Shown: positions 49,055 to 57,708 of the stretch, one piece after another
Numbering within the stretch: the stretch's first letter is position 1
Layout: each line of letters starts with the position of its first letter
From: a virus
Virus record (IMG/VR): IMGVR_UViG_3300045988_160236
Span: 95,578 to 159,577 of that record
Length of the DNA: 64,000 bases
Strand: one strand, 5' to 3'
Made by a program: the position numbers and the translations under genes
Notes under the pieces: model-generated
Told to the model about the DNA's origin: nothing
Seen by the model: the letters and a program-made list of their open reading frames with translations, nothing else
Database searches by the model: none

Positions 49055-49405
49055 CTATTCTGCTTTCTTATCACGGCCTACTTCAGGAAGTTCTGTGAAA
49101 TACTCATTATAAATATTCTGAGCAATTTCCAGACAGATTTCAGCGTTGCGCAGGTCATCACGAAGCTTGAACATCTGAGTTACCCACTCATCTGCCTTAA
49201 AGTCTGTACCTACAACTAGTGATTCAGTCGATTTAATCGACAGATCCTCCAGATTCATAATCTTGGACTTAATCTGACGAATCTCTTTCTCAATGAGATT
49301 AACCTGATCCTTAGCTGCTTCGCGGGCATCAGCATTGATGATTTCAGCACGTTTCTTGAGTACTGCAGTTCCAGTAGCACTCAGAATTTCATTAAATTTA
49401 TTCAT
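49055..49405 (-). CDS. hypothetical coiled-coil protein (116 aa)
   Basis: ORF track. Confidence 0.35.
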   Translation of the reverse strand: MNKFNEILSATGTAVLKKRAEIINADAREAAKDQVNLIEKEIRQIKSKIMNLEDLSIKSTESLVVGTDFKADEWVTQMFKLRDDLRNAEICLEIAQNIYNEYFTELPEVGRDKKAE

Positions 49406-50204
49406 AAACTTTTATTACTTTTATATTGTTTGGAAGTTCTTCTTTATCCCAATCCTTATAAGAATTGGTAATTGTTATTGTTTTGTAAAGTTTTGATAAC
49501 TTTACTAAAGGTTCTTTTTGGATAGCATGTGTGACACGTAAATGCACATCAGTTACTCCCATGTCTTGTAATGCTTTATAAATTGCAAAGAAGGTTCCTC
49601 CACCATCACATAAATCATCAAAAACTAGAATAGAGGTATTTGGCTTTATTCTAGAAGGTAATTTTACCTCTAACTTATCTCTTGAAATCCTATGCTTTGT
49701 AGCATAGTATGTCGTATCAAAGTCAAAAAGCTCACTGTAACGATGATAGGCACCTTCGTCAGGGAATAAACCATTCTCTGGAATATTAGAACCTGGTTTT
49801 AAAGCAAAGAATGCAGGCCAGTCATTATCAATTACCCCTTCTGTAATCAAACGCTTAGAATGAGGATCTAGTACTAGAATTTGCTGTGCTTGTACAAAGA
49901 TAAGACATTTTTTAACAAGCTCCAAATCTAATGCCTCATTAAAAGAAAATAATCTATCAGTTCGCGCTGCAAACAAATAAGCTATTTGTAGATAGGAAAT
50001 CTGGATACCTTGACGATGACAAATATCCGCTAATTGCATTAGAATCCAAATATCATTCAAATTGGATAATCTAGTATAGATCAGCAGGGACTTTCGTCTA
50101 TCCATTTCAGACTCAAGTACAAGATGGGATTGGGAATCAGGATAAGTATCAATTCGATACTTTATTTCTGACTTTTCTGGGTATAAAAAGTTAATTATTT
50201 GCAT
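49398..50204 (-). CDS. ribose-phosphate pyrophosphokinase-like PRTase (PRPP synthetase)
   Basis: PRPP-binding loop 'ILVFDDLCDGGGTF'; 268 aa. Confidence 0.5.
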   Translation of the reverse strand: MQIINFLYPEKSEIKYRIDTYPDSQSHLVLESEMDRRKSLLIYTRLSNLNDIWILMQLADICHRQGIQISYLQIAYLFAARTDRLFSFNEALDLELVKKCLIFVQAQQILVLDPHSKRLITEGVIDNDWPAFFALKPGSNIPENGLFPDEGAYHRYSELFDFDTTYYATKHRISRDKLEVKLPSRIKPNTSILVFDDLCDGGGTFFAIYKALQDMGVTDVHLRVTHAIQKEPLVKLSKLYKTITITNSYKDWDKEELPNNIKVIKVYE

Positions 50205-51289
50205 ACAGAGTCAAAATTCTTTTTGCAGGTTTTGATAGAGTAATTATAAGGAATTCCTAAGTCATGTCCTACACATATGTCACAACATGTTTCAATCAAC
50301 CTTACTTTATATTCAGGATTAAAGTGTGATTTAACATGATCAATTCCATATAAGACTAATTCCTTATTGAATTCATAAGTTTGAAATTCTCCTTGAAAAG
50401 GATTATTTAAATTTGTTTCATAAGGGTTATTAATCTCCTTAAATATAGAATCTCCAATAGGCCCTTTACCATGCCTTGTTAAATAAGATCTATATACAAA
50501 ATTAAATATTATTTGATCCTCAGTTAAAAAGAATGGAAGATTATTCCATGATGGACAACATGGAAGTGGGGTAGTATATTCATGTGAAAATCCAATATTA
50601 GGGTCCAAAAGTACTCCTTGAGAACCCTCAAATATCACAGAAGTCTTTTCTTTCCATGCTAATTTAGATAACGTATCCTCCAATACTATATTGGGATAAA
50701 AAATCTTACAATAAGTATGTACTAAAGAATCTAAGTTATCGAAAACATGAGCAAATCTTGAATAAGTTTCCTTAAACTGGAGTCTATCTTCCGCCCATTC
50801 TCTAATTAATCGGAGCTTCATTTTTACAACTTGAGGAAAAGCTAAATCTTTTACATATAAAGCTAATCCTTCTCTTTGTCTCTGAACAGTCTCCCATATT
50901 CCTTTCCCTACTGTAGAACCTTTACCCCTTTCAGAATTCAACATTACATCAAAAGGAGTTGTTATTTGTACATATGGATCAAAATATTGGATAGGGATAT
51001 TACATCCTAGGAAATCTAACTCCTCTCGTTCCCACATCCATTGTAGTGGATCCATAACACATTGTTTCATCCAATAAGTAGGTGCCTTAGCAAATGTTCC
51101 AGATCCAAAGCAAGAAAATATATGCGTTGTTCCAGACGAAGTAACTACTGTGTGTCCTGCTTGATGCCCTCCAGAAAATCTAACAACCAGAGGTTTTAAA
51201 TGCTTTCTTTTAGCGTCGCAACAAAGGGCATGAGTCACTTGACCTTTGCCCTCGTCGCCAAACGTACAACCCACTACAATATTATACAT
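50195..51289 (-). CDS. adenylosuccinate synthetase-like protein (PurA family)
   Basis: N-terminal 'GCTFGDEGKGQV' (GDEGKGK P-loop) and 'RFSGGHQAGHTVV' (compare 'RYQGGHNAGHTLV'). Confidence 0.5.
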   Translation of the reverse strand: MYNIVVGCTFGDEGKGQVTHALCCDAKRKHLKPLVVRFSGGHQAGHTVVTSSGTTHIFSCFGSGTFAKAPTYWMKQCVMDPLQWMWEREELDFLGCNIPIQYFDPYVQITTPFDVMLNSERGKGSTVGKGIWETVQRQREGLALYVKDLAFPQVVKMKLRLIREWAEDRLQFKETYSRFAHVFDNLDSLVHTYCKIFYPNIVLEDTLSKLAWKEKTSVIFEGSQGVLLDPNIGFSHEYTTPLPCCPSWNNLPFFLTEDQIIFNFVYRSYLTRHGKGPIGDSIFKEINNPYETNLNNPFQGEFQTYEFNKELVLYGIDHVKSHFNPEYKVRLIETCCDICVGHDLGIPYNYSIKTCKKNFDSVCK

Positions 51290-57180: not shown

Positions 57181-57237
57181 CTTATTAAGTTTTAAAAATA
57201 AAGCGGATATTGAACGATGTCAATATCCGCAAATTGT

Positions 57238-57708
57238 TTATAAAGATCCTCTGTAAAAGGTAAGAGTCTTACCAAGTAGATTTTCTCCCCAATTTGATTG
57301 GTTTTGAAGTGCATGATCTTGATCATAGCCTATACCCCAGATTCTATCAAAGGGAGATGCTTCAACAAAGAATTTCCCGTCTAATGCTGGGTCTTTAAGT
57401 TTATCCATTAAGTCTTTATTTTGGCTAAACTTACCTTCCAAGGCAAGATACATTTTCTGAATCTTAACCTCATTCCAGGATTTCTCATCAAAGTTTCTAA
57501 CCTCCCTACCAAGGTTTTTAGCTTCCTTTGGAGTCTCTGCTAATAGAATCTTCTCTGCTGTTTCTACATCACCAAAATGTAAAGCTTTAAGATACATAAA
57601 AAGCTGTTCAGATGATTTAAAAACTTTAGAGCCAAATACTATTCTACAAGGATGAAAGTTACTTAACCAACCTCCCCAGAAGAATATAAAATTATCTACA
57701 ATTTTCAT
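57238..57708 (-). CDS. NADAR (YbiA-like) domain protein
   Basis: 'FIFFWGGWLSNF…SEQLFMYLKA…'; start trimmed to the internal Met because the ORF's 5' end overlaps tRNA-Tyr. Confidence 0.5.
   Translation of the reverse strand: MKIVDNFIFFWGGWLSNFHPCRIVFGSKVFKSSEQLFMYLKALHFGDVETAEKILLAETPKEAKNLGREVRNFDEKSWNEVKIQKMYLALEGKFSQNKDLMDKLKDPALDGKFFVEASPFDRIWGIGYDQDHALQNQSNWGENLLGKTLTFYRGSL

Follow-up and report, generated by a model that had tools for sequence, protein, structure and literature searches.

Can a phage operon rebuild NAD+ when no adenylyltransferase gene is seen beside it? This question was raised by a stretch of 64,000 nucleotides (the window), positions 95,578 to 159,577 of the IMG/VR virus record IMGVR_UViG_3300045988_160236. 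An earlier note on this DNA had listed eight genes in it, named Prs, PurA-like, vWA, NadE, NadV, PncA-like, Ro60-like and NADAR, as one NAD-salvage and nucleotide-supply island. NAD+ depletion is among the commonest outputs of bacterial immunity, and the published phage pathways for rebuilding NAD+ are NARP1, NARP1-AP, NARP2 and NARP3. In NARP1, the PRPS homologue Adps converts ADP-ribose (ADPR) to its pyrophosphate (ADPR-PP); the Nampt homologue Namat combines this with nicotinamide to give NAD+; deletion of the pair from FADO abolishes FADO resistance to DSR2 (Osterman et al., bioRxiv 10.1101/2024.02.11.579819). Since NARP1 makes the dinucleotide directly, it needs no nicotinamide mononucleotide (NMN) adenylyltransferase (NMNAT), which explains why none was found in the window. 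We propose, as an even call made from the sequence, that the minus-strand operon core at 55456-49030 belongs to the NARP1 kind and lets the phage reconstitute NAD+ by the deamidated branch, for which no NMNAT would be needed. It looks like an apparently widespread NARP1 variant that works via nicotinic acid. No description of its four-gene module was found in the NARP and Namat literature searched, which did not cover all journals.

Organization of the operon

The features of the operon were as follows.

55456-55481, minus strand: terminator-like hairpin that closes the DUF7788 unit and bounds the NAD operon upstream (11-bp stem, 5 GC pairs, T-tail)
54437-55018, minus strand: PncA-like protein of the isochorismatase family, 193 aa (Pfam Isochorismatase 1e-20)
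52951-54435, minus strand: A-type Namat homologue (Nampt family), 494 aa (NF006629 437 bits, cut-off 405)
52181-52969, minus strand: NH3-dependent NAD synthetase NadE, 262 aa from TTG (Pfam NAD_synthase 5e-55)
51289-52179, minus strand: von Willebrand factor A (vWA)-fold protein, 296 aa (phrog_2971 only; no Pfam match)
50195-51289, minus strand: divergent PurA-like protein, 364 aa (Pfam Adenylsucc_synt 8e-30)
49398-50204, minus strand: Adps-like protein of the PRPS family, 268 aa (phrog_619, 6e-37)
49055-49405, minus strand: 116-aa protein (p116), last operon gene (homologues in three unrelated phages)
49030-49048, minus strand: terminator-like hairpin, downstream boundary of the operon (7-bp stem, 5 GC pairs, T-tail)

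The operon began with two small open reading frames (ORFs), which were followed by the PncA-like, Nampt-like, NadE, vWA, PurA-like, Prs-like and 116-aa genes. These seven genes abutted or overlapped by 1-10 nt between the two terminators. They are predicted to be translationally coupled, and this supported our proposal. The likely start of NadE was the ATG at 52951, with a 1-nt overlap with the Namat stop; the TTG start gives the 262 aa listed. The Adps-like and Namat genes were three genes apart in one operon, within the ten-gene limit used for NARP1 (Osterman et al.).

The eight genes lay in the place and order given by the earlier note, all on the minus strand, and profile matches bore out its family calls. 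Its picture of one near-contiguous block held for the strand; the block itself was not single. Hairpins were present at both outer ends (57840-57816 and 49048-49030), as it had said, and two more lay inside, after the NADAR gene (57230-57203) and the DUF7788 gene (55481-55456). The block thus consisted of three transcription units: NADAR (57708-57238), DUF2828/DUF7788 (57180-55489) and the operon (about 55456 to 49030). Because every gene of the 64-kb window was on the minus strand, the strand coherence of the block was not distinctive. A tRNA-Arg gene was located at 48954-49026, after the hairpin at 49030-49048.

The Nampt-family protein grouped with Namat

The protein that had been called NadV was compared with solved enzymes of the Nampt family. 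It matched the SpbetaL1 Namat entries 9w5x/9w5w (PMC12774641) with 373 bits (2e-110), and Xanthomonas and human Nampt with about 195-199 bits. By this comparison it is best placed with Namat and not with Nampt. It also passed NF006629, an NCBIfam model named nicotinate phosphoribosyltransferase. The equivalents of the Namat core residues D13, Y15, F189, R192, the catalytic His, R306, D308, R399 and D400 were present, and those of the adenine-stacking Phe392 (clamp position 3) and of Arg40 were retained.

The pocket triad was K209/A211/S236 in the window protein and G213/D215/A242 in SpbetaL1 Namat. Asp215 (Asp219 in the human enzyme) hydrogen-bonds nicotinamide and is expected in NARP1; its position was taken by Ala211. 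In the 120 nearest database homologues this position was Ala in 113 and Ser in 7. Human Asp219 sets the substrate specificity of Nampt, where the substrate is switched by D219S and activity is lost with D219A (PMC7096376, PMC4919578). In SpbetaL1 Namat, D215A lowered NAD+ synthesis approximately 8-fold (PMC12774641). Ala211 and the flanking PncA-like and NadE genes together point to a probable nicotinate route. The clamp helix was also changed. Its signature in Namat is GSxΦxΦxΦTRD, with aromatics at positions 3 and 7; the window sequence was GGFSMLSYMDEFGNVDMFSRD, with Phe at position 3 and a 10-residue insertion before SRD. Among the 120 nearest homologues, the insertion was 9-27 residues long.

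The Prs-like protein grouped with Adps

The Prs-like protein fell below every NCBIfam Prs cut-off (64 vs 296 bits; 55 vs 113 bits). With a hidden Markov model made from the Adps of ordinary NARP1 loci, it scored 168 bits and E. coli Prs scored 117 bits. Members of the Adps clade are short, lack the C-terminal alpha11-alpha12 region and conserve the PP loop. The window protein agreed with this, being 268 aa long (315 aa for E. coli Prs) with the PP loop DDLCDGGGTF. The equivalents of R87, H121, D161, D212, D213, C215 and D216 were present. ICP1 Adps has been assayed and its structure solved, and the residues shown to be important in that structure were kept (PMC13586617). The ICP1 Adps/Namat reference genes are at the right end of the ICP1 genome, outside its first 50 kb. 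An apparent loss of Lys185 was rejected, as it came from a one-column alignment shift: K-H-R of the window protein aligns with K-I-R of ICP1.

PncA-like and NadE proteins

The best solved relative of the PncA-like protein was the yeast nicotinamidase Pnc1 (2h0r, 7e-12), and the VVVDMQxDF, TRDxH and HCVxxTxG motifs were aligned between the two. D8 was present, RDTH and HCVCGTEG were aligned to Pnc1, and candidates for the Lys and Cys were located by eye in DKLNRF and TNLCV. The putative Asp-Lys-Cys triad and the metal site (D-x-H ... H-C-V) of a nicotinamidase were in place. The score was below the NCBIfam PncA cut-off (27.7 vs 174). NadE scored 181 bits with TIGR00552 (cut-off 63.65), and its SGGxDS P-loop motif reads GISGGKDST. 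It had no glutaminase domain, as in the NH3-dependent NadE family.

The four genes occurred together in viral loci

Comparison was made of 181 viral loci around Namat homologues, whose six-frame ORFs were searched with profiles seeded from the window proteins; the ICP1 Adps/Namat pair was fetched separately. Loci with Ala at the Asp215 position were classed as A-type (98 loci) and those with Asp or Glu as D/E-type (83 loci). Among the D/E-type loci were the FADO locus and the crAss-like cassettes. Genes for PncA-like, NadE and Adps-like proteins were found together within 10 kb in 89/98 A-type loci and 0/83 D/E-type loci. PncA or NadE was present in 97/98 of the former and 0/83 of the latter; taken singly, a PncA-like homologue was in 92/98 A-type loci, and a NadE homologue in 95/98 (0/83 D/E-type). 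Adps was present in both groups (93/98 and 80/83). To lessen the effect of relatedness, 70%-identity clusters were counted, and the co-occurrence was 10/11 vs 0/28 (Fisher p = 1.7e-8). The A-type loci were mostly compact operons in the order PncA-Adps-Namat-NadE or Adps-Namat-NadE-PncA. Nine were incomplete, mostly through cuts at contig ends or as deletion variants of the window lineage.

The pocket residues followed the same division. In the 98 A-type loci the first position of the triad was N or K in 97, and the second and third were A and S in all 98; in the D/E-type the triad was G, D/E and A in 83/83. The Asp215 and Ala242 positions separated the groups without exception, and the other catalytic residues were conserved in both. 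This gives a three-residue marker (N/K, A/S, S vs G, D/E, A) by which the two kinds of enzyme are separated from sequence. The aromatic residue at clamp position 3 was kept in 97/98 A-type enzymes (Phe in 96) and the Arg40 equivalent in 93/98; the clamp insertion was in all but one of the 98.

Relatives with a Namat 71-83% identical to that of the window keep the gene order isochorismatase, Namat, NadE, vWA, PurA-like, Adps, 110-aa, ~66-aa and IMPDH-family. Some loci have lost genes: NadE, vWA and PurA-like in L007 and L023, vWA and PurA-like in L016, and vWA, PurA-like and Adps in L019. In L005, a LAGLIDADG gene sits between Namat and NadE.

The two partner genes of the window lineage had different affinities. 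The nearest relatives of the Adps-like protein were crAss-like phage genes adjoining Namat-like genes. Window-lineage Adps matched crAss-type Adps with a median of 161 bits, and Adps from the other A-type modules with 62 bits. Window-lineage Namat had a median of 474 bits to other A-type enzymes and 320-329 bits to D/E-type enzymes. From these scores, the window lineage appears to have recruited its Adps from the crAss-type two-gene NARP1 clade. Such a pairing of an A-type Namat with a crAss-type Adps would be expected if both kinds of transferase share the ADPR-PP intermediate.

Bacterial copies and NrtR

Bacterial genomes were scanned with one genome per species, which gave 80 loci. All had Ala or Ser at the Asp215 position, and nearly all were from gut Clostridia. 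Their sources included metagenome-assembled genomes of Lachnospiraceae, Ruminococcus and Oscillospiraceae. Isolates with the operon were Dysosmobacter segnis BX15, Clostridium sp. HCP1S3_C6, Ruminococcus sp. AM36-2AA and Thomasclavelia cocleata DSM 1551, and the main bacterial gene order was PncA-Adps-Namat-NadE. In Clostridium sp. HCP1S3_C6, the operon was located amid ordinary chromosomal genes and was followed by a Nudix and winged-helix NrtR gene. An NrtR-like gene (for example at 10184-11047 of locus L186) was found in 55/80 bacterial loci vs 0/181 viral loci. NrtR regulators control NAD genes, and ADPR was the most effective in releasing the tested NrtRs from DNA; the operon of Clostridium acetobutylicum is nrtR-pncA-pncB-nadD-nadE (PMC2330246). 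The link of these copies to NrtR suggests that bacteria recycle NAD from ADPR as a routine part of their metabolism. By analogy with the clostridial operon, adps-namat stands in for pncB-nadD, the two genes that take nicotinate to nicotinic acid adenine dinucleotide (NaAD), and this supported the nicotinate route.

Proposed pathway

From the observed family memberships, conserved catalytic residues, pocket substitutions, operon structure and strict four-gene co-occurrence, we infer all four substrate assignments and an anti-defence purpose. The Adps-like enzyme would convert ADPR, the product of defence NADases, and ATP to ADPR-PP and AMP. The released nicotinamide would be deamidated to nicotinate by the PncA-like nicotinamidase. 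The A-type Namat homologue would then join nicotinate with ADPR-PP to give NaAD directly, and NadE would amidate NaAD to NAD+. No adenylyltransferase for NMN or nicotinic acid mononucleotide (NaMN) would be required. We further suggest, with confidence a little short of even, that the A-type protein is a new enzyme, a nicotinate ADP-ribose transferase, and that the four-step pathway is native to gut Clostridia under NrtR control and has been captured repeatedly by phages against NAD-depleting immunity.

Three arguments favoured ADPR-PP over phosphoribosyl pyrophosphate (PRPP) as the donor. The partner gene grouped with Adps and not with Prs; the A-type enzymes keep residues for which stacking on adenine is the sole role described; and the window lineage combined an A-type Namat with a crAss-type Adps. 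The link drawn by the earlier note between this locus and the rebuilding of NAD+ against NAD-depleting immunity was supported by the homology to NARP1. The loss of key residues that it had named as telling against NadV was not seen, since the catalytic His, Arg306, Asp308 and other core residues were conserved; the nicotinamide Asp was gone. It was also right that NMNAT is not visible: no NMNAT, cytidylyltransferase-like, Nudix or Macro domain was detected in the scanned window ORFs (nearly all ORFs of at least 135 aa). Its chemistry, in which Prs makes PRPP, NadV makes NMN and an NMNAT is missing, is probably wrong given the kinship with Adps and Namat.

The window resembles the NARP1 operons of SpbetaL1, Bas63, FADO and ICP1 in having PRPS-like and Nampt-like genes a few genes apart and no NMNAT, and in a Nampt-like protein nearest to solved Namat with the core, clamp Phe and Arg40 equivalent kept. 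It differs from them in Asp215 to Ala, Gly213 to Lys (Asn in most A-type enzymes) and Ala242 to Ser, in the 10-residue clamp insertion, and in an Adps gene that lies three genes away from Namat in the window lineage. Nicotinamidase and NAD synthetase are obligatory in the A-type, whereas 0/83 ordinary NARP1 loci have them. NARP1-AP likewise widens the NARP1 core with an extra enzyme for more substrates. However, its Macro-domain ADPR-1''-phosphate phosphatase Adpp acts on the ADPR side, while the extra enzymes of the window would act on the pyridine side, and the window showed no Macro domain. NARP2 (Nampt and a bifunctional Nmnat, as in KVP40) and NARP3 (PnuC and a NadR-like protein) also rebuild NAD+ in phages, and NARP2 uses a Nampt-family enzyme. 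However, both depend on an adenylyltransferase, and the window yielded neither this nor PnuC or NadR.

Two kinds of bacterial operon were also similar. NrtR-controlled Preiss-Handler operons have pncA and nadE as first and last genes and lead from nicotinamide through nicotinate and NaAD to NAD+ (PMC2330246), and the bacterial A-type copies usually have an NrtR-like gene nearby. The difference is that pncB-nadD is replaced by adps-namat of the A-type, and that phage copies are without NrtR. The prs-nadV-nrtR operons of gamma-proteobacteria (Shewanella, Acinetobacter) place a dedicated prs paralogue by a nadV-like gene with an ADPR-responsive regulator (PMC2330246), but are without pncA and nadE.

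If our proposal is true, it would be a fourth phage solution, in which the pyridine base passes via nicotinate, and would add a new enzyme activity. The pathway would then be shown to vary on its pyridine side, as it is already known to do on its ADPR side. The proposal would explain hundreds of genes in gut phages and Clostridia that are labelled nicotinate/nicotinamide phosphoribosyltransferase and ribose-phosphate pyrophosphokinase beside pncA and nadE. It also yields a sharp and cheap biochemical prediction for four purified proteins.

A separate cassette and neighbouring genes

The remaining genes of the block, and a neighbour, were as follows.

57238-57708, minus strand: NADAR-domain protein, 156 aa (Pfam NADAR 5e-41)
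55489-57180, minus strand: DUF2828/DUF7788 protein, called Ro60-like, 563 aa (Pfam DUF7788 6e-12, DUF2828 8.5e-06)
47280-48341, minus strand: IMPDH/GMP-reductase-family protein, 353 aa (Pfam IMPDH 2e-38)

The vWA, PurA-like and p116 genes formed a separate cassette, and NADAR and DUF7788 were neighbours and not parts of the pathway. The vWA gene was just upstream of the PurA-like gene in 3/3 unrelated large phages without NAD genes, and a p116 homologue (115-120 aa, 33-37% identical, 1e-10 to 2e-15) directly preceded the vWA gene in 3/3; the cassette contexts are loci L265-L268. Their occurrence in many phages without NAD genes indicated a widespread cassette of three genes, which in the window are interspersed with those of the NAD module. 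The cassette touched the NAD module in two further arrangements, L069 and Ruminococcus sp. AM36-2AA (L255). Outside the window lineage, vWA, PurA-like, NADAR or DUF7788 genes were within 6 kb of the module in 1-3/78 A-type loci (NADAR in 3/78), and this weak association led us to reject them as integral parts. The single NAD-salvage system of the earlier note was therefore not upheld. p116 was coiled-coil-like. In Vibrio phage phiKT1024 (L268), annotated NADAR, PurA-like and TROVE genes were within 8 kb without the NAD module, and a 295-aa gene, whose identity is unchecked, was at the position expected for the vWA gene.

The AlphaFold2 model of the 296-aa protein had a predicted local distance difference test score of 86.4 and a predicted template modelling score of 0.85, and its best Foldseek matches were integrin I-domains (5e-07). 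The metal ion-dependent adhesion site D65-x-T67-x-S69 was present, with D65, T67 and S69 invariant in 112 homologues. The protein is thus modelled as a vWA fold, in a family of >4,600 database proteins. The idea that it duplicates the vWA region of the DUF7788 protein was rejected because no significant similarity was found. The Ro60-like label of the latter came only from phrog_850, annotated as RNA-binding protein. Its only Pfam matches were DUF7788 and, below the cut-off, DUF2828, and a sequence search of the PDB gave no match.

The Pfam match of the PurA-like protein was limited to profile positions 1-280, and the curated PurA model was failed (84 bits with NF002223, for a cut-off of 402). 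Of the active-site residues, those for phosphotransfer (D13, K16, H41 and Q224) were kept. PurA is recognized by the aspartate loop (T300/T301/R303/R305) and the guanine site (K331/D333); here T301, R303 and R305 were replaced (loop FQGEFQ) and K331 was Cys. With these residues lost, the protein may use other substrates. Adenylate supply is not established, and the nucleotide-supply part of the earlier note became doubtful. The PurZ model was also failed (NF038379, 27.8 bits vs cut-off 300, N-terminal 60 residues only), so a Z genome was not supported. A PurZ with a diaminopurine genome, considered in view of the dATP/dGTP diphosphohydrolase domain gene at 21408-22172, was rejected on this ground and because natural variants are without the gene and homologues occur in mycobacteriophages and other phages. 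We know of no reported diaminopurine genomes in those phages.

NADAR was well above its cut-offs (Pfam 141 bits vs 35.1; TIGR02464 133 bits vs 73.7). A longer NADAR ORF (GTG at 57786) would overlap the tRNA-Tyr at 57723-57809, and the start is likely the ATG at 57708. The GMP-reductase-like, SLOG/LOG and MgtC genes that had been placed beside the block were present. The top NCBIfam match of the IMPDH-family protein was GMP reductase (124 bits vs cut-off 344). Its gene was three genes downstream in the window lineage, and this synteny was kept in relatives L005, L006, L008 and L009.

Alternative explanations

Several findings weigh against our reading. Human D219A is inactive and not switched, and the D219S switch is matched only by the minority Ser variants. 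The insertion interrupts the GSxΦxΦxΦTRD motif and puts the second adenine-stacking aromatic out of register, so that adenine recognition may be altered or lost. The Adps-like protein is divergent (26% identity to ICP1 and FADO Adps), its catalytic Lys was placed only by manual realignment, and the crAss-type NARP1 that it resembles is itself a putative pathway. Natural variants of the window lineage are without NadE and/or Adps (L007, L019, L023). To our knowledge, NadD is universal in bacteria and every host has it. In vitro, PRPP is still accepted by SpbetaL1 Namat (PMC12774641), and with the host NadD a route through PRPP and NaMN is chemically possible. In this Preiss-Handler route, PncA would give nicotinate, the Prs-like protein PRPP, the A-type enzyme NaMN, the host NadD NaAD and the phage NadE NAD+. 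The NF006629 match (437 vs 405 bits) and the disrupted adenine-clamp motif fit it, and the pocket changes suit nicotinate with any ribosyl donor. However, the partner failed all Prs models and grouped with Adps, and the window lineage took it from the two-gene NARP1 clade. The adenine-stacking Phe and Arg40 equivalent are conserved in the A-type and would have no role with PRPP. NadD was never in the operon, while pncB and nadD stay side by side in the classical clostridial operon. We regard the PRPP route as unlikely, although it deserves real weight.

The chemistry proposed here could also serve general NAD+ maintenance, as an auxiliary metabolic operon from Clostridia. The chromosomal copies in many gut Clostridia, with an NrtR-like gene in 55/80 loci, suggest ordinary NAD recycling, so that the anti-defence role in phages is one that we infer; phage deletion variants are also in circulation, and the window is rich in other nucleotide-metabolism genes. 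However, ADPR and nicotinamide are the exact products of defence NADases, and the regulator was lost in phage copies (0/181). Variation in presence and absence is typical of counter-defence genes, and the variants seen here fit this. Validated NARP1 operons are anti-defence (Osterman et al.). General maintenance was accordingly considered improbable. It is more doubtful still that all eight genes and the GMP-reductase-like gene form one integrated system that feeds or protects the NAD pathway, for example by adenylate supply or by ADPR release from ADP-ribosylated targets. The vWA and PurA-like genes were inside or beside the NAD module in three arrangements (window lineage, L069 and L255), NADAR was within the operon in a few loci, and the close NADAR, PurA-like and TROVE genes of phiKT1024, with its unchecked 295-aa gene, could be read in the same way. 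However, the cassette was without NAD genes in 3/3 contexts in a family of >4,600 proteins, and only 1-3/78 A-type loci outside the lineage carried such genes within 6 kb. NADAR and DUF7788 had their own terminators, and the aspartate-loop residues were gone from the PurA-like protein. Hardly credible is the original scheme, in which nicotinamide is turned back into NMN by NadV and Prs and then into NAD+ by an NMNAT encoded by the host or far off in the phage genome, with PncA and NadE as side activities. The Nampt-family fold and catalytic His are intact, and only 64 kb of a ~178-kb genome was in view. However, Ala is present for the nicotinamide-specifying Asp, and the equivalent changes inactivate human Nampt and cut Namat activity 8-fold. 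PncA would destroy the nicotinamide substrate, NMNAT was not found in the window, and the NMNAT-linked (NARP2) enzymes are a group apart from Namat.

The phage and other features of the window

The window was AT-rich (G+C ~32-36%). It had the gene content of a large phage, with helicases, ribonucleotide reductase, polynucleotide kinase-phosphatase, RNA ligase and a DNA polymerase of family A split by a LAGLIDADG endonuclease, and further nucleotide-metabolism genes were many across it. IMG/VR contigs up to 177,852 bp code for an identical Nampt-family protein. The nearest cultured relatives of the window helicase, human-gut phages and crAss-like phages, were 28-37% identical, and megablast of the 8.4-kb block against phage genomes gave no match. 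The phage, an uncultivated one of the gut, has no close cultured relative. Twelve tRNA genes were scattered over 41-63.5 kb (ARAGORN), and one of them, at 60270-60342, had an oversized anticodon loop with the four-base anticodon gtgt.

Clustered at 44666-46616 were a protein of the SLOG/LOG family (44666-45166), one of the MgtC family (45453-45833) and one with a cREC_REC 'cyclic-phosphate processing receiver' domain (46179-46616), a set for which nucleotide signals are a possible target. The LAGLIDADG endonuclease gene (2642-3241) adjoined a fragment of a family-A DNA polymerase (3369-4280), and a DnaB-like helicase at 30284-31378 was split over two neighbouring ORFs. These suggested that the polymerase and helicase genes are interrupted by mobile elements. 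An RNA-repair set at 6224-9010 and 23577-24674 (polynucleotide kinase-phosphatase, RNA ligase and RlaP-family nucleotidyltransferase) could, in our suggestion, counter tRNA-cleaving defences. The protein at 21408-22172 had the N-terminal domain of dATP/dGTP diphosphohydrolase (PF18909), which we take to be linked to phages with 2-aminoadenine (Z) genomes. At 62494-62979, a nucleoside 2-deoxyribosyltransferase-like protein had a weak TIR_2 match (7e-4), and a homologue of its gene was upstream of NADAR in relatives L005-L007. An SPFH/Band-7 protein of 537 aa (57854-59467) was conserved beside the module in relative L008, and the region of its gene was the G+C peak of the window (0.42 vs ~0.32 elsewhere).

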